The notes below the pieces were generated by a model, which saw only the letters and a list, made by a program, of their open reading frames with translations, had not been told where the DNA came from and did not search any database. DNA of 64,000 nt from a virus. Below, in pieces: positions 7,901-33,172 of the stretch. The position numbers and the translations under genes were made by a program. The stretch lies in IMG/VR virus record IMGVR_UViG_3300037313_001572; one strand, written 5' to 3'. Every line of letters starts with the position of its first letter. Position 1 is the first letter of the stretch.

Positions 7901-10900
7901 AAAACGTCCAGCGCGTGACCGACGTCACGGATGTTCTCGCGCTCGACTGCGTTGGGGTCGTAATCGCCTGGCATCAGAATGCCGGTTGCAACAGAGCCAT
8001 CGCTCTTCGTGTAGAGAGTGACCGCTCCACGCCACTGCAATTTGGCGTATGCCGCGATTAGGTTGCCCGTGATGATGACACGTTGCGCCTTGTCCTCTCG
8101 AGACGCGTTATATTGAACGTCGAACTGGTCTGGATCCATGTCGACCAGGCGTTCAGCCATCTGGCTGGCAGGGATCTTCATTTCCCGGCGAAGGGTGTTG
8201 TTGGCAACGGTGAATATCACCTTGCTGGGAGTGACCGGTGCATCCGGGTCAATCTCTACGTTGGTGATGGCGCCAACTTTCTTGCCGTTGGAGGTGTTGA
8301 TGATGACCGGGTTGCCGAGGCGCCCCAATTGCGCCCAGACTTCTGCATATTGGTTGCGCAACCGCTCGCGCTCTCGCTGTTCCTGGGTCGCCCAATCCGA
8401 GATGCTCTTTTCCTTTCGCTTCTCGAGATATTTTTCCACCCATTCGGAGGATTGCTTTTTGTAGTCGGCGATGATCTTGGGCCGGCGAATGGCAATGTCG
8501 TGGGCCTGCTTCATCACCTCGGCGGGCTCCAGCGGAGTCTGTTTCGGCTTCACCTTCACCATTTCCATGTGACTCGGCGCGTCGAAAGAAGATTTCCCAT
8601 TCGGGTCTCCGGGAGTGAATACCTTGCTGCTTACCGTCTCGGCGCCAAGATCGGCCGCCGCGGCGCGCAACTTGTTCTCGCCAATCTGGTCGAGATATTT
8701 GATTTGCGCGGTGTAGCGGTTGAGCACGTCATCCCAGAACATTTCCTGTTCTTCTACGGGCAAAAGCCCGGCATAGCTGGCCACGTTTCGCGCCAGCTTC
8801 CCGTCTTCCTCCATGTCGTCCAGAATATCTTTGATCGGCGCCAGCTTCCCGTCTTTGTCGACGATCTTGGGATATTGCAGGTCTTTCAGGAACTTGGGAT
8901 TGTCCGCCAGATATTTGTAAACGACCGCGTCCCCGTACTCGTTGAAAACATCCACCACATTCGTTCCGTGGGAAACCTCGGAGTCCGTGTTGCTGGTCGT
9001 ATTGGCGTTCAGGCTCGCCATCTTCTTTCCCAGGATGGCGGCCGGCCGCTTCTCCGCCGGCAGAGCCGTTTGAAGCAGCTGGTATCGAGGCAATTCAACC
9101 TGACCGGAGCGAAAGATGCGTCCGAGGGTCTGCGTGAACTCGTTGATGTCCAGATGCGGCTGCGCAATGACCATCATGCGCGGACTGTGATTCTTGAACG
9201 TCTTGTCTGAGTGCGCGCTGATCCCCGTCGATCCGCTCTGGTTGATGACCAATAGGTGCGTGTCGCCGTTGTTGAAGTCTTTCAGCGCGGCCAGTTGCCC
9301 CCTCTTCGTGCTGTCCTCCGGTTCGCGCTCGTAGACCGCGCCGTATTTATCGATACCGGTAGTTCGACCGGTGATTTCGGCCGTCTTGATTCCCTCGTCC
9401 TGCACCCGCTGCCGGATATGGTCGATGGGCGAGAGCGGCATGCCGCCAAGATTCAATTGCTTGAGCTCTGCCTCGGCGTCGAGGAAAGCGTCGTTGGCGA
9501 TGCGGCGGAAGACTTCCGCAGCCACCTCGGGAACGACCACGCCAATTTGTTTCGGTCCTTCATCGGTGCTGATCGTCTCCACCTTAATCAGCTGTGCGAC
9601 GAGGTTGTCGTCACTGTCGTTTTTAAAGCGCGGATCGGGCTTTCTACCAATGTGGGTGTATTCAGCGGTACCGGCGGATTCGCTGCCCCTCGTCTTCACG
9701 CGGCGCAACCCGTTCAATGTTCGCACTAGCAGGCTTCCAAACTCCAGAGTAAGACCTTCCTGGTGCAATCCCTTGATGGGTTGCTCCATGGTATTCTGAA
9801 CGGCCACGATGACCTTGTGCGACTTTACCGTTCCGTCCTTTGTCTGGTGGCCAACCTTAATCGCCTGGATGGCTTGCTGGGCTGCTGCCTCTGCCTTGAT
9901 GGCGAAGAGATATTGAGAAACGAAGTTGTGAATCTGGCTGGCGAAATCGGCCGCCTCCATCTTGATGGTGGAGATATCCATTTTTTTGCCGGCCCTCACC
10001 ATAATGGCGTTCATGGATTTCACCGCGTCCTTTACGCGGTTGCTCATATCCAAGATCGTCCGAAGGCCTCGAGTGTATTCGTTGGCCAACTTTCGATCGC
10101 GCTCCTCGGTGTCGGTATTGATGCGAGTCTCAAACGGAACGCCGTCGTAACTGCGTTCCCGCCGAATGTACTGCCCGTCTTGGGCGAGCATCTGGCTCGC
10201 CACCTGTTGCATTACCACGCCGCCTCGCTTGAAAACTTCCATTAGGTTTTTCGCGCTTCCGGCCGCCTTGCTCAGATTGGTCTTGAAGTAGAGCGGCATG
10301 GAGTCGGGCCGCTTGGCAAAGGTTGCGCTGCTGTAGTAGGCTCGAGCATTGGGATTCTCGAGCATCTTCAGCAGTCGGCCGCCCTGGATGCTTTCGCCGG
10401 CAGCGAGATGCGATTCGTCCAGCAGGAAAAGAACGCGATTGCGAGCCACCAGCGCATTCAGCGCGGCCGTTCGCTTTCCAGGAAGCGGAAGGCGGCCGGC
10501 GCGCATGGCAGCCCGGCGCTCTTCGGCGGTCTCTCCCTTGGCGAAATCCTTGCCCAGCTGGTGGTAGGAAGTGAAAACCGCATCATGCCCATGCGGCATC
10601 TGTCCGTCCTTGGCGATAAGCTCCATGGTCGGATTCATGTCGCGCGTTTTGATTTCCGCATCGGTGATCGGATGCAGGATGTTCAAATTATTGTTCGTGA
10701 ACAGCGGATTGACCGTCCGGCCGATGTTGTGGAAGTCGCCCAGCATGGCCGAGAAAAGAGCCTCGTCCTTGGTGACGAAGATCGGAAGAAACCCATTGCG
10801 TTTGGCGTATTCGATCAATCCGGCCACCACGCGCCCCTTGCCAACACCAGCCATGTCTCCCAGCACCAGCGCGCCCGCGGTCTCGATGTTGTGAATTGCG

Positions 10901-13900
10901 CTGGCGATGGCGTCCAGCTGCTCGGCCGCGAAGTGTTTGCTGAGGTCGTATCCCTTTTTATACCCCATCTTTTCCCGGGCGTATTCGGCCAGGGGTTTTC
11001 CTACCTTGCGCTGAATTTCTTCCAGGGCGTGGCGTTGCGCGTCGGCAATGCCGGCGGGCGTCTCGATGCCGAAAGACGTTCCCTTCGACACGGGAACATA
11101 CGGCTTGTGAAACTGCGGTTTCTCCTCGTCGCTCTGAGCCTCGAGGGTTACCAGTCCCCGCTGCCCGCTCCCGCCGTGTTCAGCTGCTCCATTCCCCAAT
11201 CCGCCCTCTGGTCGCTCGGCAGGCTGTTCCACTCCTTCGCTGGAACTAGTTGCGGCTGGTTCTCGAGAAGCTGCTCCAGACTCATCGTTACCTCCTCCAC
11301 TGTTGGATTCCGCGGGAAATTGAGATGCAGGCCGTTTTTCTCCAGCCCCTCGACGACCGGCCAAAGCTGTTCGGACTCCAGCAAGGCTTTCGCCAAGCTC
11401 GTTGCGATGCTTTCCCTCGTCGTATTGGCCTGCTTGGATTCGGTCGTCATCGGTGCGGTTGAGTTCGGAGCGAAGTTCGCTCCACGTGTTCAAAATACGC
11501 GGCGGTTCCTGGTTTGGCAACTGGATAGGGGACTTGCCCTTTCCGGCGATCGTGATGATGTCCACCGGCCATCCGGCACCCTGTTTTTTGTAGAGGTCGC
11601 CGTTGACGGTGAAATGATCGACTACCTTGTATTGCTCGTAGAGACGCTTGAAGAACTCGCCCCGCTCGCCGCTGGCGTAGTGCTGTCGGCGCGCATTCGG
11701 GTCAATGGCTTGCGAACCTCCGATGATTAGCGAGGCGCGGCCATTGGGCGCAAGGTTCTGCAACGTATTCAGGACGATGGCATGGTCGATTTCACGCGTT
11801 TCGCCGCCGCCGGCCATAGGGAACATCGTCGCTTGGCCATTCTCGCCCTTGAGCACGCCGAATGGAGGGTTTTCGACAATGCGCGTAAACTCGCCGCTGA
11901 ATGGTTTGGTCGCGTCCTGGTCGGAGACGTCGAACCCCTGCGCCTTGAGTGCGGCTCGGCGGGTCGGGTCAATCTCGTTCGCCAGGACGTGCGCGGGATC
12001 CGCCTCGAGAAGCAGCGCGCCGTTGCCGGCGGTTGGCTCGAGTACGTACGTCTTCTCGTTCACTCCAGCGAGATGGCTTGCCAGGAATCCGAGTGGAATC
12101 GGGGTGCTGTATGCCTGGTTGATTTTACTGGCGCTCGTCTTGGCCGTGAGATTCGGCTGCCTGTTGTAGAGCTCAAGAAGGCGGTCGAAGACCTTTCCGG
12201 CATCGTGATTCTGGGCGCGTCCCTCCTCTACGATCATGCGGCCACGAATGACGACACCGTGCTCCGCCGCTTCGTCGATCTGCTTCACAGTAAGACCTGG
12301 ATGCTTCGCGGCGAGCTTTCCGAGGTCGTTTCTGTTGAGCGGGCCGTCTTTCAGTGCATCGGCCACGACGCTCGCGAGTCCCATGGCTGGCTTAATCTTT
12401 TCTGGCTTTTTCGACGGTTGGCTTAATTCGCCAGGCTCGTAGATGCTCTTCCAATCCGGCTCAGACGGCCCATCGGCACCGATGCCCTTCATGAAGAACC
12501 AGAACGATTGCGAGTAACCCTTGGCCTTCTCGCTGATGCGCCCCAGCGTTGTTGCGAGGTCTTCGGGCGATTTGATGCCGAGGCCTTCCAGCTTTTGCGC
12601 CATGGTGATGGCGTCCGCCATGCGCTCGGGCGGCAGCTTGGACGTGTAACCTGCTTCGGGGTTGGCTGCGTATAGATTGAATTGCGGGGTCTGCTCCTTC
12701 CATGCTTCGGGAATCGGCATGGTGTGGATGGGAGCCTTCCCGAAGTCTGGATTTTCAGCACGGTCAAGATGATCGCCCATTTCCATCTTTTCAGGATTGA
12801 GCTTATCAATCTGTCCGCGCTCCACCTTGCCGCCAACCTTCTCAGCCAGCTTGTTCGCAATGCGCGGAAGCATCACGTCGTAAAGGCTCTTCAGTCCTTC
12901 GCCTCCAACTTTGAGATCGGTGTTAGAATACGTCTGGGTTTTACCTTCTTGCGCGACGATTTTCTGTGCCAATTCCTTTCCGACAATGGCTTCTAGTTCA
13001 GACGGTGTTTGATCCGTGACATGAATTATCGGTTCGCTGTCGTTCCCTTTTTTGAACGCTTGGACATGGAATTGATTTTGGATACTCGACTTTGAGGCAA
13101 CGATTTTGGATATGGTATTGCTCAAGTCATACCGCTCCGTCTGCTGCTCGCCGGTAGTCCACCCAATCGCATCCGCGCCCTGGTCGATCGCGTCGCGGAT
13201 AGCCCGCTTCATGCCAATCTCATAGATGCGCTTGCGCAGTGGTTCAGGCATCTTCTGTTGCTCGGCCGCGCTCGGTCCCTGTATTTCCTCGATGAAGTAG
13301 GTTCGGCGCCCTTGGGAGTCCTCGCGGATGTTGCGGCGGATGCGGACAATCGGGTTGGCGATGTCGTTGTATTGGCTGTGCCCGTCGTGCCAGTTCTCCG
13401 ACGAATCGCGCTCGTTTCCACGAACCTGAATTTTAGAAAGCCTGTCCGCTTCCTTCAATTCTTCATCCATCCATCTGCCGCGCTTGGTTGCGGATTCTAC
13501 AAGCGCCTTAAGCTTCGACTGCGCCTCTGCGTGAGTGAGTCCGCTAGATGGCCACGTCACGAACTGCTCGCGGTAGCTGCCAGGTTCGGCGCCGGGGAGT
13601 TGGTATTGCGAGAAGCTGGCAGGCGTCCCGCGCGTAACTATTCCGCCAGCACCATCATCCATCGGCCTGCCATTCGCATCCAATACTCGCTGCTCTCCGC
13701 CCATCATAACATCCTGCACCTTGGCCTGTCGCTCAAGCGAGTAGTCCGTCAGTTCACTCTTGGTAACGCGCGAATCATCGGGCTTGCCGACGAGCGGGCT
13801 CAATGGGTCATCCAAAAGCCCCTGCTGCTTGATCTCGTCGGGTTTCGCGCCCTTTAGGATCGCCGCCCGCGCCTGCCCTACGGTCATCGTCGACTGCGGC

Positions 13901-16900
13901 AAGCTCTGGATGGTCTTGGTCAGCTTCGAAATGAAAACGGGCTTCTCTTCGTCTGGGTTGGCTGCGAACAGGTCGCCGAATCCCTTTTTTAGCTCGTCGG
14001 CCGCCTGGTCGAATTTGTCGCCCTGCTTTTTGCTGGCGATTTTCTTTTCCCGCTTATTGATGCGTTTCAGTTCGGCGTTTTGATGCGCCAAAATCTCATC
14101 ATCCATCTCTGGACGCGAGGGCTCGAGTTCGCGCTTTTTGTAGCGTCCCAGCTTCTCCTCGATGCCGTTTAGTAATTCGCGCACGTCCTTAGACAGAGTC
14201 CCCAGCTTTTCCCGCAGCCACTTCAAAAGGTTGTCCAGGAACTTGTAGCTGGATTCAGTGAGGTTTTCCGGGCCCTCGAGAAGCACTCGCGCCGCCTCGG
14301 CCGCGCGCTGGAATTCGTTCAGCCCTTCCCATTCCGGACCATAGATTTCACCGGTCTTCTCCATCAGTTCCTTGTCTCCGTTGAGACTGAGCAGCCGTTG
14401 CATGTTGGCCGTGCTTTCCTTGGCGTACTTCACGGTGCCAAGGTGGATAATTTCGTGCGCTACGGCTCGCTTCACCCACTTGGATGCCTCTTCCTTTCCG
14501 AGTTTGGAGACCGCCGCGGCAAATTTCTCTTTGTCGATGACGATACGTCCGCTGTTGGAGTCGGTGATGATTCCGCTTTTTGCCGGCGTCTCTCGGAAAA
14601 TGAATTCGTCCGGGTGCCCAAGGGCATCCAGTTCGGATTTGTGCAGCTTCAGCGCGGCATTGGCCAGTGCTACCGCGTAGTTTTTCTGTCCCTCGGTCGG
14701 TTTTTCCTCTGCCTCTGCCTTGGCCTTTTCAATCGCGGCATTTCGCTCTTTCTCCGTGGAGATTTGTTTCTCCTTCTGGAATTTATCGCGAGTCTCCTGC
14801 AGCTTCGCCTTGGCCTTTTCGGGTGTCAGTTCGGCATCGGACAGTGAGAAGTTTCCGCCGGTCTTTTCGTCTTTGAAAGCGTGCAACCCTTGGTCGCCTT
14901 TACCTTGGTATGTCGCTCCGATTTCCTTGGCGATCGACTCTGGATTGACGTTAGATGAATTTATGGCACTATTCGGCTCATGGGACGCCCTTCCACTGGT
15001 GGACACATCCGCCGATTTCCTCGCCATAATACTTCCTATCGCCTTATAAGCGTCGTCGTTGACGGTGTCAGGCGACAACGGTTTGAACACCGAATTGTTA
15101 TGGAGAAAGCTCTTGGAAGAAAGCTCTCCTCCAAGGAGGTCGTTCACCATCGCGACGGGAATGGACTTAACAACTCCATCGGAAATCTTGAGATCATTTC
15201 CCAGCGGGAGCATGTTCAAATTCACCGGTTCGGACGACTTCGATGGCCGCTGGATGAGGCCATTGAGCTTCGCAAGCAGGGATTTACCATCGCTGCGATT
15301 GCTGCCCGATACAAAGTGACCTACGCCAGCATCCAGCGCGCTTTTAAGCGCAGAGGACTCCTCGGGCGTTACGTGAAGACCGTTCGCATTCGAGACGCTG
15401 CCACCGGAAGGATTCTCGGCAGGAAGACGCTCCCCGCGTGATCTCTGCACGCGAGTCGACATTGCCCACTGCTTGAACATCTCAAGCGAAGGAAATTCCG
15501 CGATGCTATGAATGCCGGGAACCTTCGAGTAATTCGATGCGTAAAGCTCGTGCGCTTCCTTTTTTGATCCTACGCCGATTACGGCCTTCGCCTCGTCGTA
15601 TGTTCCATCCGGTTTATTTTGGTTCACGACAAACACGGGCCCCTTGTAGTCCAAGGGCGTGCCGGGCTTGATGAAGGTATCGATGTGGTCGCCGTCGTTT
15701 CCTTCCGTTCCGCGGATGTAGCCGTAGTGCGCCGTGAGCGGCGGCCACTCCGGGCGCCGACTGCTGCCGGCCGGGTTCTCGATCGAAATATCCATACCGC
15801 CAAGGCGCAGATGCCCCTTGGCGTAGTTTCCGGCCTTCTTTTGCCCCTCGGTGGGGTGCTCGAGTTCGTTCTTGGTCGAGGTTGCGGCTTCGTGCGCCGC
15901 CTGGTCTACGGTTTCTTTCGGCGCCGTGGCGGATGCGCCAGTCGCTCCAGTGGATTGTTGCTGACGTGCTCCGGAAGGCTGCTGGGATCCGGCGTTTCCT
16001 TGGCCCACTTCTCCGCCTTGTCCTTCATTTCCTGCCCCAGTGCTCCCGAGAACGCTGCTCTCATTTGCGCTTTGCTCTTGAACGGCATTACCTGGTCCTT
16101 TCGTTGGTTGCTGGCCTCGAGGTGCCGCCCCCTGTGGCTCCGTAGTGACATTCGTGGGCGGCACCTCTTCTTGGTTTTCTACGGACGGCGATTTACCGAT
16201 GGCCCGAACGATATCGTCATTGTTCAGTCCCAGTTTGGTAAGTTTGTCGGTCGCCTCGGCGTGCGACATCGTTCCGGCCATGACAGCCTTTTGAATTGCC
16301 TCCTTGCCTTCCACTTCTGGCGATGGCGGCTGCTGTTGCGTTCCCGTAGTTTCCGCGGCCGGCCCGCCAACGGCAGGCGTAGTCGGCTCGGGCTGACCTC
16401 CGCCGCCGGACTCTCCCGGATTGGTCTCGATCTTGGCCGTGGTCAACGGAGTTCCTTCGCGCTTCCCAAATTCCGGGATGAATGCCTGCTTGGCGGTGAT
16501 GCCCTTGATGGTCGACGAATCAAATTGGCCGGTGGCCTTCATCTGCTTCGCCTGCTCGCCGATGGCATTGAATACCGCCTGTTCGGTCTTCGAAAGAGGC
16601 GCGGAATTGGTATTGGCCGCCTGGTTGCTGTCCAGACCCATCTTATTGAAGGCCTCGGCTACCTGCTGCGGAGTCAGTTCCGCATCCAATGGTACGCCCA
16701 CCATGTTGCGCATCTGGGCGCGCGTGAACATGCTGGCGATGTCCTGGCTGGAGTAGTCCTTGAACTTGATGTTGTGCCCGGCGGTGATGATGCCGAGTGC
16801 GATGTTCGTCGCCATGCTCTTCAGTGTCGGACTCTGCACCTGGTCATGCTGGATACCCAGCTGATCGGCCAAAGCATTGCTGGCGTAGTCGAACAGCGGG

Positions 16901-18606
16901 CGAATCGCTCCCTCGAATACTGCGCCGCCGGCCGCGCCGCCGGCCGCGATCTTGCCAACCAGCTTCGCCGCCGCGACCGTTCCGCCCACTTGTTTTGCGA
17001 TCTGGGCGGCCTTGTAGACGTTGCTCACCGCTTCCGGCGCGTTGGCGCTCATGCCTACCAGTTCACCGGCCGCATCAAACATCGGATGCAGCTGCGCAGA
17101 CGAGTTGAGGCTCTTGATGGTGTCCGAGTAGTCGGCCAGCTTGTCCAAGGCCTTACGCGCGGCAAAGGCGGCAATGGTGCCCGTGGTCAGGCCGCCAAGT
17201 GCGCCGCCAATGAGTTCCGGTATGCCGGTCTCGCCTGCTCCTGGAATCGCAGCGCCGGCCGCCGCTCCAAGTTTCGCTCCCGGTATGGATCCAGCCCAGA
17301 AAGCCGCTCCAATTCCGCCGCCATGCAGCAAGGCTTTCAACTCCTGCGCGCCGCCGGCGGCCTGCTGCAGGGCTTGATACTTGTCCTGCGCTGCCTGGAA
17401 GTCGGGCAAATGTTGCTGCGCCCACTCCGGAGACACCAGATGATCATTTACGGCCTGACGAAGACCATCCGCCATGTTCTGCGGCTGGAAGTGAACCCCG
17501 CTGGCATCATCGTAGGTGTACGGCTTGTTGCCCGCCCGTGCATCGGTCAAAGCCTTGTTCAGCTGGTCAATTTGCTCCGGAGCAAGCGCCGGACTCGAAC
17601 CGGCCGCACTGGGATTATGAGCCCCAAGCGTATCCTGATCTTGCCCCGGAGGAGGTAGCGCCCCAAAATCTTGCGCGCGACCTACGGCCACGTCCGCGCG
17701 CTGGTGTAAAAGGTTAGACTGCTGGGCGGTCTGCTGGTCGATATGCTGCGACCGCTCGGCAATCAAATCCTTCAGGCTGCTCATCTGGTCGAGCAGCTGA
17801 TGAGCCTTTGCCTTCTGCTGGTCGTAGCCATTGCGCAGAATAGTGGCTTGCGGAGAGAAATCGCCGGATCCAAACCAGCCCGACTTTTCATTCGCCTCTG
17901 GTGCCGCGTAGAGGTCGTTAAAATGGCTGTCGATCGCTTTATGGGCGTCGTCGAGCGAGGTGTCGTCCGGCTGGTTCTGGAGGGACGGCACCATGCCGAA
18001 AAGCCCCTTCTGCATCGCCTTGTATTGAGTCTGGTCGCGATGCAGCTGGCGCTCGTCCACGGTCAGCTGTCGACCGAGGGCCTCGGAGGCATCCTTTACG
18101 GCCTTCTGCTTTTCCTGTTCGAGCGCGGCCGCGGTGGCCTGCTCGTCCTGGCCGAGATATTTCCACCCCAATCCCTTTCGAATTCGGTATTTAGCGCCCG
18201 TGTCTTGATCGATCGTAGTTGGGACATCCTTGAAGGCATCCTCCACGGCCGGCGCGCCGCCATACTCGTTGGGAGTTACCTGCACCGGGTTACCCTGGCT
18301 GTCGTATCCGACATTCGCCGCCTTATTGTAGTGCGAGACCGGTGTTCCGGTCGCGTCTGTTACCGGCTGGACGTTCCCCTTGTCGTCGGTGTAGATCGCA
18401 TTCCCCTGCGCGGCAAGGTCGCGGCCCTTCATCCGGTTTACCGTCTGCTGCGCTTGCTGCTGAACGCGTTGCGTGGATACCTGGCGTTCCTCTGTCTGGA
18501 ACGGGGTTTCGCCGGGAAGCGGAGGATTGGACGCGTAATCGCGCTCCACATCGCCTACTTCACCCGGCACATTGAGCAGCGCGTCGAGTGGGTTGTTCGA
18601 GTCCAT
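4993..18606 (-). CDS. Giant polyvalent virion/ejection protein, DarB-like (4537 aa): Gly/Ala hydrophobic N-region, inorganic-pyrophosphatase-like domain, zincin, N6-adenine MTase, Strawberry-notch SF2 helicase, KOW-like, helical C-terminus
   Basis: GNYAKGH..ISIENPAGS..HYGYIRGTEGNDGDHID (~15465-15910); HEIIH (~14445); VLEPTAGNG (~12030) and NPPF (11860-11871); GDMAGVGKGR (~10845), DESH (~10413), SGSTGISAH and TLGRIFRSGQ (~9100-9240). Confidence 0.85.
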   Translation of the reverse strand: MDSNNPLDALLNVPGEVGDVERDYASNPPLPGETPFQTEERQVSTQRVQQQAQQTVNRMKGRDLAAQGNAIYTDDKGNVQPVTDATGTPVSHYNKAANVGYDSQGNPVQVTPNEYGGAPAVEDAFKDVPTTIDQDTGAKYRIRKGLGWKYLGQDEQATAAALEQEKQKAVKDASEALGRQLTVDERQLHRDQTQYKAMQKGLFGMVPSLQNQPDDTSLDDAHKAIDSHFNDLYAAPEANEKSGWFGSGDFSPQATILRNGYDQQKAKAHQLLDQMSSLKDLIAERSQHIDQQTAQQSNLLHQRADVAVGRAQDFGALPPPGQDQDTLGAHNPSAAGSSPALAPEQIDQLNKALTDARAGNKPYTYDDASGVHFQPQNMADGLRQAVNDHLVSPEWAQQHLPDFQAAQDKYQALQQAAGGAQELKALLHGGGIGAAFWAGSIPGAKLGAAAGAAIPGAGETGIPELIGGALGGLTTGTIAAFAARKALDKLADYSDTIKSLNSSAQLHPMFDAAGELVGMSANAPEAVSNVYKAAQIAKQVGGTVAAAKLVGKIAAGGAAGGAVFEGAIRPLFDYASNALADQLGIQHDQVQSPTLKSMATNIALGIITAGHNIKFKDYSSQDIASMFTRAQMRNMVGVPLDAELTPQQVAEAFNKMGLDSNQAANTNSAPLSKTEQAVFNAIGEQAKQMKATGQFDSSTIKGITAKQAFIPEFGKREGTPLTTAKIETNPGESGGGGQPEPTTPAVGGPAAETTGTQQQPPSPEVEGKEAIQKAVMAGTMSHAEATDKLTKLGLNNDDIVRAIGKSPSVENQEEVPPTNVTTEPQGAAPRGQQPTKGPGNAVQEQSANESSVLGSTGAGNEGQGGEVGQGNAGSQQPSGARQQQSTGATGASATAPKETVDQAAHEAATSTKNELEHPTEGQKKAGNYAKGHLRLGGMDISIENPAGSSRRPEWPPLTAHYGYIRGTEGNDGDHIDTFIKPGTPLDYKGPVFVVNQNKPDGTYDEAKAVIGVGSKKEAHELYASNYSKVPGIHSIAEFPSLEMFKQWAMSTRVQRSRGERLPAENPSGGSVSNANGLHVTPEESSALKSALDAGVGHFVSGSNRSDGKSLLAKLNGLIQRPSKSSEPVNLNMLPLGNDLKISDGVVKSIPVAMVNDLLGGELSSKSFLHNNSVFKPLSPDTVNDDAYKAIGSIMARKSADVSTSGRASHEPNSAINSSNVNPESIAKEIGATYQGKGDQGLHAFKDEKTGGNFSLSDAELTPEKAKAKLQETRDKFQKEKQISTEKERNAAIEKAKAEAEEKPTEGQKNYAVALANAALKLHKSELDALGHPDEFIFRETPAKSGIITDSNSGRIVIDKEKFAAAVSKLGKEEASKWVKRAVAHEIIHLGTVKYAKESTANMQRLLSLNGDKELMEKTGEIYGPEWEGLNEFQRAAEAARVLLEGPENLTESSYKFLDNLLKWLREKLGTLSKDVRELLNGIEEKLGRYKKRELEPSRPEMDDEILAHQNAELKRINKREKKIASKKQGDKFDQAADELKKGFGDLFAANPDEEKPVFISKLTKTIQSLPQSTMTVGQARAAILKGAKPDEIKQQGLLDDPLSPLVGKPDDSRVTKSELTDYSLERQAKVQDVMMGGEQRVLDANGRPMDDGAGGIVTRGTPASFSQYQLPGAEPGSYREQFVTWPSSGLTHAEAQSKLKALVESATKRGRWMDEELKEADRLSKIQVRGNERDSSENWHDGHSQYNDIANPIVRIRRNIREDSQGRRTYFIEEIQGPSAAEQQKMPEPLRKRIYEIGMKRAIRDAIDQGADAIGWTTGEQQTERYDLSNTISKIVASKSSIQNQFHVQAFKKGNDSEPIIHVTDQTPSELEAIVGKELAQKIVAQEGKTQTYSNTDLKVGGEGLKSLYDVMLPRIANKLAEKVGGKVERGQIDKLNPEKMEMGDHLDRAENPDFGKAPIHTMPIPEAWKEQTPQFNLYAANPEAGYTSKLPPERMADAITMAQKLEGLGIKSPEDLATTLGRISEKAKGYSQSFWFFMKGIGADGPSEPDWKSIYEPGELSQPSKKPEKIKPAMGLASVVADALKDGPLNRNDLGKLAAKHPGLTVKQIDEAAEHGVVIRGRMIVEEGRAQNHDAGKVFDRLLELYNRQPNLTAKTSASKINQAYSTPIPLGFLASHLAGVNEKTYVLEPTAGNGALLLEADPAHVLANEIDPTRRAALKAQGFDVSDQDATKPFSGEFTRIVENPPFGVLKGENGQATMFPMAGGGETREIDHAIVLNTLQNLAPNGRASLIIGGSQAIDPNARRQHYASGERGEFFKRLYEQYKVVDHFTVNGDLYKKQGAGWPVDIITIAGKGKSPIQLPNQEPPRILNTWSELRSELNRTDDDRIQAGQYDEGKHRNELGESLAGVRTALAGRRGAGEKRPASQFPAESNSGGGNDESGAASREPAATSSSEGVEQPAERPEGGLGNGAAEHGGSGQRGLVTLEAQSDEEKPQFHKPYVPVSKGTSFGIETPAGIADAQRHALEEIQRKVGKPLAEYAREKMGYKKGYDLSKHFAAEQLDAIASAIHNIETAGALVLGDMAGVGKGRVVAGLIEYAKRNGFLPIFVTKDEALFSAMLGDFHNIGRTVNPLFTNNNLNILHPITDAEIKTRDMNPTMELIAKDGQMPHGHDAVFTSYHQLGKDFAKGETAEERRAAMRAGRLPLPGKRTAALNALVARNRVLFLLDESHLAAGESIQGGRLLKMLENPNARAYYSSATFAKRPDSMPLYFKTNLSKAAGSAKNLMEVFKRGGVVMQQVASQMLAQDGQYIRRERSYDGVPFETRINTDTEERDRKLANEYTRGLRTILDMSNRVKDAVKSMNAIMVRAGKKMDISTIKMEAADFASQIHNFVSQYLFAIKAEAAAQQAIQAIKVGHQTKDGTVKSHKVIVAVQNTMEQPIKGLHQEGLTLEFGSLLVRTLNGLRRVKTRGSESAGTAEYTHIGRKPDPRFKNDSDDNLVAQLIKVETISTDEGPKQIGVVVPEVAAEVFRRIANDAFLDAEAELKQLNLGGMPLSPIDHIRQRVQDEGIKTAEITGRTTGIDKYGAVYEREPEDSTKRGQLAALKDFNNGDTHLLVINQSGSTGISAHSDKTFKNHSPRMMVIAQPHLDINEFTQTLGRIFRSGQVELPRYQLLQTALPAEKRPAAILGKKMASLNANTTSNTDSEVSHGTNVVDVFNEYGDAVVYKYLADNPKFLKDLQYPKIVDKDGKLAPIKDILDDMEEDGKLARNVASYAGLLPVEEQEMFWDDVLNRYTAQIKYLDQIGENKLRAAAADLGAETVSSKVFTPGDPNGKSSFDAPSHMEMVKVKPKQTPLEPAEVMKQAHDIAIRRPKIIADYKKQSSEWVEKYLEKRKEKSISDWATQEQRERERLRNQYAEVWAQLGRLGNPVIINTSNGKKVGAITNVEIDPDAPVTPSKVIFTVANNTLRREMKIPASQMAERLVDMDPDQFDVQYNASREDKAQRVIITGNLIAAYAKLQWRGAVTLYTKSDGSVATGILMPGDYDPNAVERENIRDVGHALDVLRNGQEISSSDGKVRIALKGGKYLLEVPSSKQAGGKFWQDPAVNRAMKNGFEQKGQWMVGEISNLGEVVGIMDRLGATLGYRPNSGTELAAADPSKIKVGDRVNVYKKPGTITSIKGKKMTVSLDEGGVIPAHVDNVTPIPAETPEAKAAAAAKASTNKPAGVSASSIAEDIGRQKEEAKKKLSDVIAGAKAVYGSAKSFFTQLAPVTDYLKAKGEWLGTGALDDPRSTGRQKSDYEVRQMERAINSKFSPAEQEAITNFIQAGGDKSTLQQRAGASSPSLAPGYEAAAKLSGEPLKFVDEVKSFYAAKAKQAQEAGILDDLLTDYVNQMWDRRNDPSYAAQNARNRNLGDVVGPGRLNTRFENAFERIHESYFAGEQKGLKPFTKKIGKLMALWAESFNRVMQNRAFIKLLLHEINATDGRPAATISGYAKPVSDSGGDALLVTPRGKSDETADYVRIENPALRGWKWVHVDPVTGTNTFVKGDILIHPEIAGDLKRTLGKSAIQNTPIIRQLRNLQFAVKQTLLSMSAFHFVQEGTHALGHTINPFHPVQIDINDQTQRELINSGLMIASHEARRDFMEGVAGGGLIDKLPVIGKMNQELNAFLFEDYIPRLKMTMAIEALKRNLARFEDDIKAGKITRQQILFKTAQQSNDAFGEQNYRMMGRSQTFQDILRLGLLAPDFLESRLKFAADATTKYGSEQRRALLILAATMFLTAKLAEKALTGDYDWRHPFSVTYKGREYKLRSVPGDMIDLFADTRRFIYGRISPIISRGIIEGLTGRDWRGQKRSFGEQLGDMLKAPVPIAIRGIIDKRTDINPGEELAGATGLSIKRHSDITETRVAGRDYQVAHGKANPDEVFPPSKYQKLKYALEDGNESKARQAFDELAKQEGRDQVMQGFRKSLLRPFSGGRETEQDFVKGLSQHQRTVYNRATAKQAVMMAMLQRISAAASVTEAPSKPKHIFTGFHS
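11148..11450 (-). CDS. Candidate nested gene in the +1 frame of the giant ORF (100 aa, or 45 aa from ATG 11285)
   Basis: Protein-like acidic helical sequence while the host frame here reads as a G/R/A/E/S-rich shadow; ATG at 11285 is preceded by GGAGGAGGT. Confidence 0.45.
   Translation of the reverse strand: MTTESKQANTTRESIATSLAKALLESEQLWPVVEGLEKNGLHLNFPRNPTVEEVTMSLEQLLENQPQLVPAKEWNSLPSDQRADWGMEQLNTAGAGSGDW
14980..15441 (+). CDS. HNH homing endonuclease (HNH_3-like + C-terminal HTH), nested antisense in the giant ORF
   Basis: EHRIVMEKALGRKLSSKEVVHHRDGNGLNNSIGNL..H motif; C-terminal helix-turn-helix-like LRKQGFTIAAIAARYKVTYASI. Confidence 0.85.
   Translation: MGRPSTGGHIRRFPRHNTSYRLISVVVDGVRRQRFEHRIVMEKALGRKLSSKEVVHHRDGNGLNNSIGNLEIISQREHVQIHRFGRLRWPLDEAIELRKQGFTIAAIAARYKVTYASIQRAFKRRGLLGRYVKTVRIRDAATGRILGRKTLPA
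15906..16088 (-). CDS. Nested 60-aa 'MPFKSKAQ' small phage protein in the +1 frame of the giant ORF
   Basis: MPFKSKAQMRAAF..AEKWAKETP..SLPEHV matches a recurring small phage protein pattern (from recall); AAGGA 7-8 nt upstream of ATG 16088. Confidence 0.6.
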   Translation of the reverse strand: MPFKSKAQMRAAFSGALGQEMKDKAEKWAKETPDPSSLPEHVSNNPLERLAHPPRRRKKP

Positions 18607-18609
18607 TGA

Positions 18610-20133
18610 TTAAACGCCGTCGTTGACGGAGGTGTCCGTGAGCCGCTTTTTGAATTCCGCATCCTGCGGACTGGTGGCGAATCGATCCAATGGGTTCTCC
18701 TGCATCGAGGTAGTTCCCAAGGGAGTCGGCGCCGCGGTGTTCTCGCCAAACAAAATCGTGCCCGGCGATCCATACTCTGGATTCCCCTTGTCCATCTCTT
18801 CCTTCTGCTGCGGTAGACTTTGCGGGGCCGGCTGCGCATTGATCTGCTGCGCGCGCTGCGCGTCGGAGGCATCTTTCTGCTTCGCCTGAAATGCGGCATC
18901 CTGCGCGGCCACATCCGACATTTGTTTCGCCTTTGCCTGCTCTGCTGCTTTCAGCTGATCGGCTCCGGTAATGGGCGGCTCCTGCGCGGCATTCGAGGAT
19001 CCCATCAACTCCGCCGGGTTGATTCCGGCGAAGGGAGATTGAGGAGCGGTCGCATTCGCGGCGGCGGCCGGCGCGGCCGGCATGTCGGACAACGAATCGA
19101 AGAAGGATCCGTGCTGCGGGCTGCTGCTGGCTCCTGTTCCGGCCGATGGGCTTGCGGTTTGGACGTCTGCCGGATGCACAAAACGAACGCCATTCTCGCC
19201 GCCTGGGGTGCCGTATTTCTCCGCGATCTTCGCGCCGCCCATGGTGTCGTAACGAGGATCGTATTCGATTGCCTCGGTCGTGCGACGATCGCCGCCGGGG
19301 GTGCGCGCCGTGCCTTCGCCGGTCTGCAACGTCTTTTGACCGAGCACGCGCTCTCCGCGGTAGTCGAAAGCACCAGCCCCAGTGTCCGTGACTTCGCCGG
19401 TACTCGGCGCCGGGTTTTCCCGAAGCCACTGTGCGCGCTGTTGCGGCGTCCACGTCTGCCATTGTCCGCCGGTACGCGCGTGCATCACCTGATCGAAGGT
19501 AGGAGACACTCCCACCTCTCGGGGCCCGCTGTGGGTTTGCACCGTGGAGACCAGGCCGGCGCCTGTCTGGGTGACGTGCGGATTCATCCCATTGGGAAAA
19601 GGGATGGCATCGACCGCTTTTTCCAGCGGGGTTCGCTCACTTCCAGGAGTGTTCACGGCCGGGGAGCGCAATGGCGTCTGACCCGGAGACGTTCCCGGAA
19701 CCGGGATACCCGTTACCGCTCCTGCCATGGCGTTGCCGGCGTTCTGCACGGCTGCCGATACCTTTCCGGCGGAATTGGTGTTAGGCGTCGCGCTGGTCGC
19801 CTGTGACGAAATTCGGCGTTGTTGCGCCTGGGCAATTCCGTCCATCCGAATGGTGGCATCGGCGATATCCTTGGCGGACATTTCGCCGTGAACTACGGGA
19901 AGAGCGGACTCCATGGCGCCGTTTTTGATGAGATTGGCCCGCTGATTTCGCAAGGCGGCCACCAATTCGGCGCGATGCTGCTCCTGCTGCATCTGGTGTG
20001 CCGCGGCCTTCTCCGTGGCCAGATTGCTCATCACAGTTCCCGCGCTGGGCGGGCCGTAGGGTGCGTAGGGGCGGCTCATGTCTCCCGTATTTGGGAAACC
20101 TTCGTCAAAGTCAAGTGAACGCCGCCAGTCCAA
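18610..20133 (-). CDS. Putative internal virion / ejection protein (507 aa, A/P/Q-rich)
   Basis: Lies between terL and the giant protein; low-complexity composition typical of podovirus core proteins. Confidence 0.55.
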   Translation of the reverse strand: MDWRRSLDFDEGFPNTGDMSRPYAPYGPPSAGTVMSNLATEKAAAHQMQQEQHRAELVAALRNQRANLIKNGAMESALPVVHGEMSAKDIADATIRMDGIAQAQQRRISSQATSATPNTNSAGKVSAAVQNAGNAMAGAVTGIPVPGTSPGQTPLRSPAVNTPGSERTPLEKAVDAIPFPNGMNPHVTQTGAGLVSTVQTHSGPREVGVSPTFDQVMHARTGGQWQTWTPQQRAQWLRENPAPSTGEVTDTGAGAFDYRGERVLGQKTLQTGEGTARTPGGDRRTTEAIEYDPRYDTMGGAKIAEKYGTPGGENGVRFVHPADVQTASPSAGTGASSSPQHGSFFDSLSDMPAAPAAAANATAPQSPFAGINPAELMGSSNAAQEPPITGADQLKAAEQAKAKQMSDVAAQDAAFQAKQKDASDAQRAQQINAQPAPQSLPQQKEEMDKGNPEYGSPGTILFGENTAAPTPLGTTSMQENPLDRFATSPQDAEFKKRLTDTSVNDGV

Positions 20134-22414
20134 GCCCGCTGCGTAAAGAAATGTCGCCTGCGTCGGTATCGGAATGCAGAGAAGTGAAGACCGCCGGCGG
20201 CATGTACATGGTGGCCCGCTCGATATTTGCCAGTCCGATGCCGATACCCATCACCCAATCGTCATGGCACCCGGGCTTCGCTTCTGCGCGGCCGCGGTCG
20301 GTCACGATGAAGGTCTTCAGTTCCACGATTGCCGGCATAAATTCGCAGTCCAAGGCGTCCTCGGAGACGTAATTCGTGATCGCGTTCACCACGATTGGAC
20401 GCGTGTCTTTGTTCGTCTCCCATCCGATGACATTGATTCTCTCGTTGGGGTGGACATTGTCCATCTTCTCGCGCTGGTAGATGCGGCACCCGGCGCGGCG
20501 AAGCTCGTTGAGCATTCCAAGCCCGTTGCCGGTCTCGGGAATAATCTCGCACCCCCCATACCAGTCCAAAAGCATGCGCATGCGCTCCGCATAAAGTGCG
20601 TCGTCCCACCGGCATCCGGTCGGAACATCGATCGCCGCCACGAGGCGCGGCTTTCGCCACCGGCCGCGATCGTCGAAGTAACCTTGCCGCAGGATTCCGC
20701 CAGCGTGCGCGTCTGGGAACAGGCTGCCCTCGCTCTGCTCGCCCTGGCACGGATCCAGGAACGCGATGTAGGAGCAGCCGGCGGCTGGCCGCTCTTTCAC
20801 CCAGAGCCAATTATCCGAGTCTCCTCGAGGCATGAAATTGATGCCGCCGCGCTCGCCCTTCTCGAGTACACCGGTTTCTGCGATTCCGTAGGAAACGCGC
20901 GCCACCTTTTCCCACCGTGAGAGCACGTCGAGATTGAATTTTGGCCGGCCCGACGCAAGGAAGCAGCTTTCGGCGTCTTCCGGGAAATCCTGGTCGAACA
21001 TACGCACATCGTTGGCGCAGTCCTTTTTGATCTTCATGCGGCGCCAGGCGATTTGCTCTGGTGACCAGTTGTAAAGGTCGATACCGCGGCGCTCGCGGTG
21101 GTCAAGATCGGAAGAAAAGTAGTCGGCGTTGTCCGCCGTGCGCGCCAGCTTGTGCTCCGGGAAGTAGAACCAGGCTGCGAAGACCTTGATCCAGCCATTT
21201 CCAACGACACCCTTCTTTCGCTGCTCAAGCGTCACGGCGTCCTGCCACGTCTCGTAGAACCAGCCTGATGCGCCTTCAGCCGTGCTCTCCGCCGCGCAAA
21301 GGGTATTGGGTTTGTCCGGGAGAGAGTTGAGAACGGCGGTGATGACCTTCTTGTCCCGCCCGCTGTTCTTCATGTAGCGGGCCGCCTCGGTCAACCACAC
21401 AATTTGCCGGGTGCCAGAGATACCGGCTTTCGGATCGAGCGCGGTGTCGTGCTCCACGACTGCCTCGCTTCCATCGTCCATCTGGAAAACAATCTTTTCC
21501 GTGTTCGATTTGATGATGGCCGTGTCCCACTGGAAATTATCGTGCTTGGGGATGTCCTGGAACATTTGCCAAACCTTTTCCGTCCGCTTGGCCACGTCCC
21601 CCATCATAATCATGTCGAACTTGAACCGCCGGATGTGGTGATAACATACCGCGGCGCAGTAAGTAGAGCATCCAACCTGGCGCGGCTTCAGGATGATGAG
21701 CCGAATCGGGATGCTATTATCTAGGCAATACTGGTAGGCATCGGAGATTGAGAATTGCAGGATGTTAGGAATCGGAGTTCTCCACACGTGCTCCTTATCC
21801 TCTATCTCCGTGAATCCTGCGAAGTGCACCAGCGGGCTGTTGCGCACCATCTCGATGCCGATTTCCGCAGTCATGTCCGGAATTTTCGGCGCCTCCACCT
21901 CCGGTATATTCATCGAGGGAAATCGCCGGCCGCCTTTGAACTCGTGCCAGTTCTTTCGCATCCATTCATCCAGTCCTTTGCCTGGCCGGTATTGGCAATT
22001 CGTCAAGAGCTCGAATTCATCGGCCGCTTCATCAAAGGAGGCGGCAGTGATTCGATACAGCACCTTGGCAAGAAAGAGAATTGCCAGCGTTGGGGCCCGG
22101 CTTTCTCCCTGGTTGCAGTGGATGAGGATTTTCCGGCCTTCCTCCCACGCGTGCCGCATGAATTCTATGAAGGAGTCGAACATTTCACGCTGAAAGAGCG
22201 GAGTGCTCGGATCGATCATGTTCAAAAACAGGTCGTTCCCCTCGCGATAGGCGAGATAATTTGAGGAGCTCGAGTCGGGCCGGCTGCCACACTTGGAGGC
22301 ATGGCACGGATGCTTGCAAGCATGCACCACGCTCCACTCTGGGTTACCCTCTACGGCTTTGCAGTCCTCGAGCGAGCCGACGTAGAGGTTATCGATTACC
22401 CGGCAACGGGGCAT
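20111..22414 (-). CDS. terL: Terminase large subunit with N-terminal dual-specificity-phosphatase-like domain
   Basis: IILKPRQVGCST (Walker A), VWLTEAA (Walker B), ESTAEG coupling motif, FLDPCQG and HDDWVMG nuclease motifs; N-terminal ~160 aa has NLYVGS..D and ILIHCNQGESRA (CX5R). Confidence 0.9.
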   Translation of the reverse strand: MPRCRVIDNLYVGSLEDCKAVEGNPEWSVVHACKHPCHASKCGSRPDSSSSNYLAYREGNDLFLNMIDPSTPLFQREMFDSFIEFMRHAWEEGRKILIHCNQGESRAPTLAILFLAKVLYRITAASFDEAADEFELLTNCQYRPGKGLDEWMRKNWHEFKGGRRFPSMNIPEVEAPKIPDMTAEIGIEMVRNSPLVHFAGFTEIEDKEHVWRTPIPNILQFSISDAYQYCLDNSIPIRLIILKPRQVGCSTYCAAVCYHHIRRFKFDMIMMGDVAKRTEKVWQMFQDIPKHDNFQWDTAIIKSNTEKIVFQMDDGSEAVVEHDTALDPKAGISGTRQIVWLTEAARYMKNSGRDKKVITAVLNSLPDKPNTLCAAESTAEGASGWFYETWQDAVTLEQRKKGVVGNGWIKVFAAWFYFPEHKLARTADNADYFSSDLDHRERRGIDLYNWSPEQIAWRRMKIKKDCANDVRMFDQDFPEDAESCFLASGRPKFNLDVLSRWEKVARVSYGIAETGVLEKGERGGINFMPRGDSDNWLWVKERPAAGCSYIAFLDPCQGEQSEGSLFPDAHAGGILRQGYFDDRGRWRKPRLVAAIDVPTGCRWDDALYAERMRMLLDWYGGCEIIPETGNGLGMLNELRRAGCRIYQREKMDNVHPNERINVIGWETNKDTRPIVVNAITNYVSEDALDCEFMPAIVELKTFIVTDRGRAEAKPGCHDDWVMGIGIGLANIERATMYMPPAVFTSLHSDTDAGDISLRSGLGLAAFT

Positions 22415-31966: not shown

Positions 31967-33172
31967 TCATTGGATTGAGATGGCTCTGGTGATTCGGTCG
32001 CCGATTAGCCGAATGCAGTTAACCGCGAAGCTATTGCCGTGCGACTTGTAGCGCGGTCCGTCTTTGGCTGGTTTCCCTTTCACGGGAATTGCCGTGTAGT
32101 TGCGCGGAAATCCCTGCAATAACTCTGTCTCCCTTACGGTAAGACGCCTCACCTCGTATCTAGTTTTCCCCTCCTGGCCTGCATGGCATGCATTCCACAA
32201 TAGCCATTCGCGTGATATCGCCTCCCACACGCTGGAACTTTGCAAATTCGCCGCTCGTTCTCCTCCGAGTCCTTCCGAAGAGCCGTGAATTGATTGTCCT
32301 TCACCATGTTCGGATCGCCCCATTTCTTGAACCGCTGGTAATGCATCTCGCAATAACCCAATCCCTTCACTGGCTGCCCGCAGATGGCGCAAGACCTCCT
32401 TACACGATGCGCTCGGATGTGACAGCCACGACAAATACGCTGCAAGTTCGACCGTTCGTTGTTCGTGTGGTTCCCATCCAAATGATGAACGTCTTTCGCG
32501 TTGGGTTTCCCGCATCTCTCGCACGAGCCTTTTGGCACCATCTTCCGCGCATGGTAGTGCGTAACGGACGACTCCAAACTCTTCGATGGTCTGGCATCGA
32601 ATGCCGAAGCCATGCACTGCCGATTGCAGTATTTGCGACGGGAAAAATGAAGCAAGCACTCCAAGTCCCCATTCGGAAAACGCTTCCTCTCCAATTTCGA
32701 ACCGCAGTGCGCGCAGAACTTCAATGGTGTTGGTTTTAGTGGCATGCTCATAGGATTTTTCTTGGTGTGAAATCGCCACATACGAACGTGAGGTATCTGC
32801 CTGCTTGGAGTTTCCACACGAAAGCGTGTTGGCATTATCGTTGCCTTCCTGCACATCGGTTCCGTTGACGTGAATTGCCGTAACGACGCAGTTTCGAACG
32901 CCCTGGTCATTGTTTCCGGCGACCGCCCCGCCAGAGCGATACATGTCCGAGGTGACGGTTTGCGCGACCAGCGGCAGTCCGCGCCCGGTGCCGTCTTCCG
33001 ACGCGTCGAAGCCATCGGCCTTGAGCGTGTGTGCAACGAGGTTCGCATGTGATCCACCGCCAAGACTGGAGTCGCGCAGTGCTTGCGCTACTGGGTCGTC
33101 ATTCCACCATCCATGGCCTGTCTCTTGGAAAGTCCAGGTAGCCTCGTCAAAGAAACCTCCTTGAGGCGTCAC
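31967..33172 (-). CDS. C5-cytosine DNA methyltransferase, C-terminal part (TRD, motifs IX-X) carrying an in-frame HNH-shadow insertion
   Basis: VRRLTVRETELLQGFPRNYT (IX) and RYKSHGNSFAV (X); frame fuses to 33147..34061 if the 14-bp repeat has 1 or 4 copies. Confidence 0.8.
   Translation of the reverse strand: MTPQGGFFDEATWTFQETGHGWWNDDPVAQALRDSSLGGGSHANLVAHTLKADGFDASEDGTGRGLPLVAQTVTSDMYRSGGAVAGNNDQGVRNCVVTAIHVNGTDVQEGNDNANTLSCGNSKQADTSRSYVAISHQEKSYEHATKTNTIEVLRALRFEIGEEAFSEWGLGVLASFFPSQILQSAVHGFGIRCQTIEEFGVVRYALPCAEDGAKRLVREMRETQRERRSSFGWEPHEQRTVELAAYLSWLSHPSASCKEVLRHLRAASEGIGLLRDALPAVQEMGRSEHGEGQSIHGSSEGLGGERAANLQSSSVWEAISREWLLWNACHAGQEGKTRYEVRRLTVRETELLQGFPRNYTAIPVKGKPAKDGPRYKSHGNSFAVNCIRLIGDRITRAISIQ
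32149..32751 (-). CDS. HNH endonuclease with Zn-ribbons, nested in the +1 frame of the MTase
   Basis: CAHCG..KYCNRQC; CERCG..DVHHLDGNHTNNERSNLQRICRGCHIRAH; two CxxxxC..GYCxxH modules; ATG 32751 or 32745. Confidence 0.85.
   Translation of the reverse strand: MSMPLKPTPLKFCAHCGSKLERKRFPNGDLECLLHFSRRKYCNRQCMASAFDARPSKSLESSVTHYHARKMVPKGSCERCGKPNAKDVHHLDGNHTNNERSNLQRICRGCHIRAHRVRRSCAICGQPVKGLGYCEMHYQRFKKWGDPNMVKDNQFTALRKDSEENERRICKVPACGRRYHANGYCGMHAMQARRGKLDTR

Follow-up and report, generated by a model that had tools for sequence, protein, structure and literature searches.

A candidate free-standing HNH homing-endonuclease cassette encoded antisense to a giant polyvalent gene of a phage

We analyzed a 64,000-nt stretch of viral DNA from IMG/VR virus record IMGVR_UViG_3300037313_001572; this whole stretch is called the window, and its numbering is used for all positions below. 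On its minus strand, a 13.6-kb gene for a 4537-aa protein stays open across a complete HNH endonuclease gene that lies on the plus strand and pairs with it codon for codon. We consider it probable that this is a free-standing HNH homing-endonuclease cassette that sits antisense in a linker between domains of the giant gene and is translated through. The following features of the window are used in the argument.

14980-15441, plus strand: predicted HNH endonuclease open reading frame (ORF) of 153 aa, from the HNH_3 match, the invariant columns, the AlphaFold2 (AF2) model and the fold match to I-HmuI
15088-15216, plus strand: predicted HNH core, residues 37-79, from Pfam HNH_3 and the invariant H56/H57, N69, H78 and H82
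15250-15351, plus strand: predicted helix-turn-helix (HTH), residues 91-124, from HTH_23 and HTH_7 matches just short of their cut-offs
14945-14972, plus strand: promoter-like element TTGACG-N16-CACTAT, from the sequence and a similar element in relatives
15539-15565, plus strand: weak terminator-like hairpin with a 5-bp stem and a T-run, about 100 nt past the HNH stop
4993-18606, minus strand: host gene for the 4537-aa DarB-like polyvalent protein, from the ORF, Pfam and the annotations of homologues
15466-15846, minus strand: InPase domain of the giant protein, residues 921-1047, from Pfam
14443-14457, minus strand: HExxH motif, residues 1384-1388, in the conserved module that comes after the insert
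14944-15441, minus strand: host-frame read-through of the cassette, residues 1056-1221, rich in Ser, Leu and Gly and absent in the homologues P0003, P0004 and P0007

Fetched DNA loci carry L-numbers (L001, L014 etc.) and proteins carry P-numbers. P0001 is the 153-aa HNH protein of the window and P0002 its giant protein, with which the giant homologues P0003, P0004, P0005 and P0007 were compared. Cassette DNA beyond the window came from 11 loci (L001, L002, L014-L018, L019, L099, L100 and L101, two of them identical), which belong to viral contigs, metagenomes, metagenome-assembled genomes (MAGs) and one Aromatoleum contig.

The plus-strand reading frame is predicted to encode an I-HmuI-like HNH endonuclease

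The ORF at 14980-15441 was complete from its ATG to its own TGA stop, and a further in-frame stop lies 8 codons ahead of the ATG. Its product begins with a beta-sheet module, followed by an HNH core and then an HTH, in agreement with an earlier note, made by a model from the sequence, that had described a complete plus-strand HNH ORF with an HTH tail. Pfam placed HNH_3 at residues 37-79 with an E-value of 1.2e-10 (41.3 bits vs the 24.8 cut-off), and HTH_23 (E 2e-4) and HTH_7 (E 3e-3) at residues 91-124, both slightly under their cut-offs. The three helices of this last region matched resolvase, Hin and repressor HTHs with Z of 4.5-5.3 in VIA-align. Annotated free-standing HNH endonucleases of many phages were matched at 33-56% identity in tblastn searches.

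The reading in that note depended on the conservation of the HNH residues, and these proved to be conserved. Across 8 cassettes, 54 columns were invariant, including EHR, VHHxDGxGLNN, NL and two later histidines; H56, H57, N64/N65, N69, H78 and H82 were unchanged in all 8, and the window nuclease retained every one of the 54 residues. The copies differed in the number of HTH units, with one in the window copy, followed by an idiosyncratic tail, and two in several relatives. The AF2 model built from the 8-sequence alignment had a predicted local distance difference test score (pLDDT) of 81.5. Foldseek ranked I-HmuI (1u3e) first for this model (prob 0.98, E 0.012), and I-HmuI was also the top VIA-align row, with Z 7.8 and a root-mean-square deviation of 3.2 over 80 residues, the next row having a Z of 5.3. 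When PDB sequences were searched with the nuclease profile, a weak match was obtained (E 0.061). Collectively, the motif, fold and HTH comparisons predict that 14980-15441 encodes an HNH endonuclease of the HNH_3/I-HmuI-like kind. A chance antisense ORF was excluded by the domain E-values together with the codon-position pattern described below.

The host gene stays open, in register with the nuclease gene

The difference 18606-14982 is divisible by 3, and the plus-strand ATG therefore pairs with a minus-strand CAT codon, with the two frames in register. The HNH ORF is antisense, codon for codon, to residues 1056-1209 of the giant protein; thus, the pairing proposed in the earlier note was borne out by the coordinates. 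The giant frame was open throughout the HNH ORF, whose stop lies 8 codons past the end of the InPase domain. The plus-strand AT skew, which was -0.2 to -0.5 in the flanking giant gene, rose to about 0 to +0.1 over 15000-15500, in keeping with a coding strand that is the opposite one in this segment.

Besides InPase (E 5e-34), Pfam detected a Strawberry-notch-type helicase (AAA_34 and Helicase_C_4) further along the giant protein, and phage homologues of the InPase region are annotated as DarB-like antirestriction proteins or methylases. The size of the protein and its many domains place it among the phage polyvalent (DarB-like) proteins. The open frame had been described as running between a PPase-like and a zincin domain. 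The first part of this description stood, with InPase at residues 921-1047 and the frame open beyond it; for the second, Pfam called no zincin domain in the giant protein, and the name comes down to the HExxH motif.

That the giant ORF is really two genes, or a pseudogene, was considered and rejected. The frame runs uninterrupted from 18606 to 4993 with no stop, as expected for the one continuous gene that had been proposed, and both halves are conserved. The HExxH module after the insert was 62% identical to P0003, and the 2500 residues downstream showed 67% identity to a homologue.

Stop-forming codons are avoided throughout the nuclease family

The nucleases of the 11 further cassettes were 57-70% identical to that of the window, and the antisense frame was open in all 11, including those found via HNH-frame searches, which are blind to the state of the host frame (L001, L002, L019, L099, L100 and L101). 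Every relative above about 55% identity had it open. Nine of the 11 cassettes lie within ORFs of 600 to over 4100 codons. The loci L014-L018 hold intact antisense HNH ORFs of 146-181 aa, 64-70% identical to P0001 and in the same codon-for-codon register, and their nucleases begin at a common N-terminal GRPS(T/S)GGH motif.

In this register, only TTA, CTA and TCA in the nuclease would give stops in the host frame, and each of them has synonyms. The three codons were missing from all 12 HNH ORFs, including those from genomes of 32-39% GC. As an internal control, the use of A-ending codons in the remaining four-fold boxes was counted in the same 12 ORFs, where it amounted to 114 of 684 codons (16.7%). 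CTA and TCA accounted for 0 of 217 CTN/TCN codons, with 36 expected (P about 7e-18), and TTA for 0 of 20 TTR codons, with 9.5 expected and A-ending codons making up 47% of the K/E/Q/AGR pairs. When the control was limited to L001, L002, L099, L100 and L101, all of them HNH-frame finds, the count was 0 of 91 against about 18 expected (P about 2e-9). A-ending codons were thus normal in the other boxes of the same ORFs, and strand-wide depletion of A was discarded as the cause of the avoidance. As an external control, 149 ordinary HNH_3 ORFs were taken out of the same scans. Only 9 of these were without the three codons, and none of the 70 below 45% GC, which average 8.5 such codons per ORF. Under the codon usage of neighbouring genes, the probability of an open frame was 2e-3 for L100 (39% GC) and 5e-5 for L101 (32% GC).

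The two frames were then compared for protein-level selection, using a gap-free alignment of the first 255 nt of eight cassettes for the codon positions. By HNH codon position, the mean pairwise difference was 0.29 at the first, 0.16 at the second and 0.54 at the third. Since substitutions are concentrated at HNH third positions, the HNH frame is under protein-level selection; had the host peptide been selected, the pattern would be reversed, as its third positions correspond to the first positions of HNH codons. Among the eight cassettes, the HNH-frame translations shared 73% amino-acid identity and the host-frame translations 42%, and synonymous vs non-synonymous codon differences were 905:647 for the HNH frame and 165:1387 for the host frame. 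The nuclease is therefore a maintained protein-coding gene and the host peptide is essentially free to vary, the host frame being constrained mainly to stay open.

Homologues lack the segment and no splicing element was detected

The closest giant homologue, P0003 (4499 aa), was 51-67% identical to the window protein over most of its length. Its alignment stopped at host residue 1052 and resumed at 1226, with 32 unrelated residues in place of the window's 173. The gap between InPase and the HExxH module was 82 residues in P0004 and 58 in P0007, vs 255 in the window, with the modules in the same order. P0003, P0004 and P0007 are without about 140-170 residues exactly at the position of the cassette, and the flanking modules are the same.

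The read-through segment, rich in Ser, Leu, Gly, Ala and Asn, matched no Pfam family. When AF2 was run on the host-frame translations, with the same alignment depth and DNA as for the nuclease model, the product had a pLDDT of 45.7, a predicted template modelling score (pTM) of 0.12 and hardly any secondary structure. Because polyvalent proteins consist of separable domains strung together, an extra disordered linker between these is plausibly harmless to the host protein. Embedded peptidases are thought to cleave some polyvalent proteins apart (PMC5512222).

Both classes of self-splicing element were rejected. Rfam gave no group I or group II intron in 13500-17000 on both strands at E up to 1, the only match being a chance one to ilvH, and Pfam found no Intein_splicing match in P0002. 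The borders of the insert (...STRVQR|S... and ...NPESIAKE...) are without Cys/Ser/Thr-HN junctions. These results are in line with the earlier note's claim of no intron or intein, and the endonuclease gene would be free-standing, borne by neither kind of element. An invertible cassette that places HNH in the giant frame was also rejected, as the flanking inverted repeats are 11 nt long and of chance quality and the ORF is bounded by stops.

It is very improbable that the segment is removed from the giant product by unrecognised splicing, bypassing or a protein-level process. Group I introns are highly variable in sequence and may escape covariance models. Nothing direct speaks for removal; antisense endonuclease genes are known in inteins (bioRxiv 10.1101/2025.01.02.630785), and antisense HNH genes were seen in the intein-like inserts of loci L073 and L170. 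However, neither the permissive Rfam threshold nor the search for splicing domains and junction residues revealed such an element, and avoidance of exactly the three host-stop codons throughout the lineage would be pointless for an untranslated segment.

Cassettes recur in different hosts and mostly near InPase

The settings of cassettes in other hosts were as follows.

L001: within a host ORF that spans at least 4156 aa
L002: within an InPase protein of 600 aa
L018 and L019: inside the same 2373-aa host
L099 (Aromatoleum anaerobium genome contig): within a host ORF that spans at least 2168 aa
L100, 1164-1853 (AT-rich MAG contig): between genes, immediately ahead of one that starts with InPase
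L101, 2804-3430 (AT-rich MAG contig): directly after the stop of an InPase ORF

To find further carriers, we searched with the host-frame translation. A word-index search with host residues 1053-1215 gave zero matches despite the presence of the segment in P0005, and an exhaustive search of 1.84 billion cluster representatives was used instead. At E up to 0.001, it returned 25 representatives, about half of them over 2300 aa. In the collected set, the host-frame profile matched 29 proteins, including 5 of the 120 giants listed by the InPase-region search. One carrier, P0005 (5013 aa), has another architecture and showed 52% identity over 173 residues right after its own InPase, with conservation highest in the part that faces the HNH core. 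At its residues 3226-3281, the antisense-HNH profile gave another and weaker match (E 5e-7), which may be a decayed second cassette.

The HNH stop lies 0-9 codons from the last InPase helix in the window, L002, L014, L015 and L018. Similarity of cassette DNA between different hosts was confined to the ORF and about 60 nt upstream. Host-frame identity correlated weakly with the identity of the adjacent InPase (rho 0.23), and nearest neighbours mostly differed between the two. Being patchy, confined in their similarity and incongruent with InPase, the cassettes point to a self-moving element that prefers the borders of InPase modules; for homing, these three features are no more than indirect signs.

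We regard as unlikely the alternative that InPase and the antisense HNH form one inherited, domesticated unit, in which the nuclease or an antisense transcript serves the phage through giant-gene regulation or DNA processing. The segment was within 80 residues of InPase in 16 of the 29 carriers, usually after it, and two sets of proteins (P0131/P0132 and P0145/P0135/P0146) were congruent for both parts, as would be expected of such a unit; long-term purifying selection on the HNH frame is compatible with both a useful gene and an active selfish one. In contrast, the cassette occurs on either side of InPase: the segment precedes it in P0125, P0131, P0132 and P0078, and in P0077 it lies 135 residues before. 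The hosts of L001, L016, L017 and L099 have no InPase, only those 5 of the 120 listed giants match the antisense-HNH profile, and the closest host homologue is without the segment. Moreover, the cassette nearest to that of the window among the fetched loci, L015 (69-70% identity), adjoins the InPase most distant from the window's (35.5%).

Within the preferred reading of a free-standing cassette, an extension can be put forward tentatively, and we think it less likely than not. The cassettes might form a dedicated homing-endonuclease lineage whose antisense frame is permanently stop-free, as a trait of the element and not of the host site; it would target InPase-module borders and, by co-conversion of flanking DNA, might move InPase modules between giant genes. 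In this extension, the stop-free trait persists in AT-rich genomes and at L100 and L101. If true, a stop-free antisense frame would be a third way to live in coding sequence, beside introns and inteins, and the element would drive domain shuffling of giant polyvalent genes.

Promoter-like and Shine-Dalgarno sequences accompany the nuclease genes

In the window, TTGACG is located at 14945-14950 and CACTAT at 14967-14972, the latter ending 7 nt ahead of the ATG. Of 11 independent cassettes, 9 carry a motif of the form GA[TC]G[AC]A[TC] at a distance of 19-52 nt ahead of the start codon, and 7 have GATGAAT itself; in the window it occupies 14954-14960, in the spacer of the -35/-10-like pair. Similar pairs flank the motif in L014 (TTGACA-N17-GATACT), L015 (TTTACA-N17-TATCTT), L016 (TTGAGA-N16-TATAGT), L001 (TTGCCA-N17-TATGGT) and L100 (TTGTAC-N16-CATAAT). 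The distance from -10 to start was 6-7 nt in the window, L014 and L015 (6 nt in the last two), a leaderless-type layout. AGGAG-type Shine-Dalgarno sequences at normal spacing were present in L016, L017 and L099, and AGAGG in L001. The conserved promoter-like element and the Shine-Dalgarno sequences of relatives would support, at the level of sequence, an independently expressed gene.

A conserved TAGATGAAT-like 9-mer was observed in the promoter-like spacer (window 14952-14960) and also in L001, L002, L014-L016, L018, L099 and L100. On the HNH strand it holds TAG and TGA in two frames, and the host frame reads Ser-Ser. The 9-mer might serve as an HTH operator, mark an end of the element or be left over from the target. 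As for the end of the antisense transcript, it is a matter of speculation whether the hairpin at 15539-15565 would provide it; terminator-like sites in the region numbered 6, vs 2.3 expected.

A proposed mechanism and the points that weigh against it

On these grounds, we propose that a cassette of about 500 bp, consisting of the promoter-like element and the ORF, lodged antisense in the linker straight after InPase. The nuclease would be made from its own plus-strand transcript, which in the window probably has little or no leader. The giant gene would be neither spliced nor split; ribosomes would read across the cassette, on host codons that are the reverse complements of the nuclease codons, and the synonyms of TTA, CTA and TCA would let the nuclease keep its protein sequence with the host frame open. 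Read-through would add about 165 residues between separable modules, as a linker with predicted disorder that the host protein presumably tolerates. During co-infection, the nuclease may cleave insert-free InPase-bearing genes and the cassette may spread via repair, that is, by homing. In its computationally testable parts, namely a conserved HNH, a single giant ORF, insert-free homologues and no intron or intein, the earlier note was upheld.

Several observations weigh against this mechanism. In the window alone, an open antisense frame has a P of about 0.41 under the codon usage of the giant gene; with the internal control (A-ending codons 16/67, and 0 CTA/TCA in 18 CTN/TCN codons), P was about 0.007. 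By itself the window case is suggestive, and the family-wide data are decisive. Among these data, L014-L018 were found via the host-frame translation, so that their antisense frames are open by ascertainment. The open frames of L100 and L101, of 229 and 208 codons in cassettes outside any long ORF, are not explained by selection in the present host alone; this state could stem from a recent move, from a trait of the lineage or from a frameshift in the host gene, the coverage of L101 being about 3x. The earlier note had asked whether the segment appears in homologues as a clean in-frame indel of about 480 bp. It was absent from P0003, P0004 and P0007, but the indel was not clean at the residue level and the flanking linker had diverged. 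A scan of viral contigs with the downstream module found no relative. As for expression, the runs that contain the window sequence are DNA runs only. The hexamers and N16 spacer of the promoter that had been proposed are present, and their position is conserved in relatives, but a scan of 14500-16000 for consensus promoters returned no site, the window -10 matching at 3 of 6 positions. No Shine-Dalgarno sequence precedes the HNH start of the window. Finally, the contigs from four metagenome runs included the 59-kb phage contig, with a depth of about 497 in one run, and no insert-free allele was found in the three metagenomes that carry the phage.

The weak -10 box, the missing Shine-Dalgarno sequence, the single HTH with its idiosyncratic tail and the lack of a co-occurring insert-free allele in the samples would also suit a relic, inactive or unexpressed in this phage and kept because its loss would break the giant gene. 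We hold this to be quite improbable. The ORF is intact from its conserved start to its stop, with 54 of 54 invariant residues kept, and L014 and L015 have the same short single-HTH layout and leaderless-style start placement. Furthermore, nothing would stop a neutral relic from losing the HNH frame as long as the host frame is kept, and that loss has not happened.

Comparison with known systems

The closest parallel is the ShiLan domain, an HNH gene hidden in a shifted same-strand frame of mycobacteriophage methylases, which the host reads through (Arsenault, Gosselin & Gogarten 2025, PMC11855218). As in the window, the HNH gene is nested in a stop-free phage ORF with no detectable intron or intein, a tolerated loop is predicted for the host-frame product, occurrence is patchy and a leaderless start has been suggested (PMC11855218). 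The ShiLan nuclease, however, uses the +2 frame of the host's own strand and needs the host transcript, whereas that of the window is on the opposite strand, codon for codon, and is preceded by a promoter-like element, to which relatives often add a Shine-Dalgarno sequence. The hosts also differ, with an inter-domain linker of a giant polyvalent protein beside InPase here and a methylase core there, as do the nucleases, the one I-HmuI-like with an HTH and the other flanked by zinc fingers.

Antisense-encoded LAGLIDADG endonucleases inside inteins were reportedly described by Gorbalenya in 1998 and Gogarten in 2002. In a recent intein survey, antisense LAGLIDADG and VSR-like endonuclease genes sit within inteins, and HNH is not listed among the antisense intein endonucleases (bioRxiv 10.1101/2025.01.02.630785). 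These share with the window a nuclease on the strand opposite the host ORF and an open host frame; unlike the window, where no splicing domain was found and the peptide should remain, an intein splices the nonsense peptide out. With I-HmuI the window nuclease shares its fold and module order, but I-HmuI is intron-encoded and the window gene lies in coding sequence. Like the mob/seg genes of T4, it is a free-standing endonuclease gene beside a conserved sequence (here InPase) and not in an intron; the T4 genes are intergenic, whereas the cassette lies within coding sequence. The host resembles the polyvalent proteins of Iyer et al. 2017 (PMC5512222) in its InPase, Strawberry-notch-type helicase, HExxH module and DarB-like homologues and in its 59-kb phage contig. 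The read-through segment is not among the domains described there, and that paper makes no mention of homing or antisense genes (PMC5512222).

A literature search found no paper describing an antisense HNH gene in a polyvalent gene without a splicing element. Relative to the known systems, the window gene unites antisense coding with the lack of a splicing element, to which come another host class and insertion context, apparent signals of its own and a quantitative dual-constraint signature. In phages and bacteria, few antisense overlapping gene pairs have good support, and such pairs are often contested. In the present case the two strands are cleanly separated, with ordinary protein-level selection on one and selection only against stops on the other, and this pattern is replicated in a dozen diverged copies with internal and external codon controls. 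The idea of a hidden HNH is thereby extended from same-strand methylases to the opposite strand and to a widespread host of another kind, giant virion-delivered anti-defence proteins. Such nuclease genes are missed by gene callers, and the matching stretches of polyvalent proteins would be nonsense linkers instead of undiscovered domains; the cassettes would mark spots at which a large protein can accept some 165 inserted residues. Should homing be confirmed, it would provide a mechanism for modular exchange within giant genes.

Other nuclease genes and neighbouring ORFs

More distant HNH_3 genes, with an N-terminal HTH, were also observed in antisense and in a different register inside long ORFs at four other loci. 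In L073 (1475-3286, minus strand) and L170 (2139-5114, minus strand), the enclosing stretch gave sub-cut-off matches to Intein_splicing (E 1e-7 and 7e-6, respectively). Another is antisense to a terminase (L004, 8412-10682, minus strand), with a faint Intein_splicing match, and a fourth to an AAA ATPase (L126, 2811-6305, minus strand), without an intein match.

In the window, the second ORF upstream of the giant gene (20111-22414, minus strand, 767 aa) gave a sub-threshold match to the dual-specificity phosphatase family DSPc (E 8e-7, 29.3 bits vs 33.5). A 304-aa ORF with a zinc ribbon and HNH (32149-33063, minus strand) lies on the same strand and out of frame inside a C5-cytosine methylase ORF (31967-33172, minus strand), whose frame is open. 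Its matches to HNH_3 (E 0.002) and HNH (E 0.018) were both sub-cut-off, and a counterpart, a 50% identical stretch, underlies a 'DNA-cytosine methyltransferase' of Staphylococcus phage CUB-EPI_14. The methylase is apparently split over two frames around 33147-33172. From its sequence, 32149-33063 seems to be a second hidden nuclease in the same phage, of the ShiLan type. A third HNH_3 gene of the window (61174-61773, minus strand, 199 aa, E 5e-8) is a conventional free-standing one on the majority strand.

Another ShiLan-like case, in a cyanophage, is g59 of Cylindrospermopsis phage Cr-LKS3 (L179 5312-7162, plus strand), a 'DNA methylase' that holds a same-strand, out-of-frame HNH ORF of 204 aa at 5707-6321. 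The methylase-frame translation under this ORF is a low-complexity run rich in Ser and Thr.

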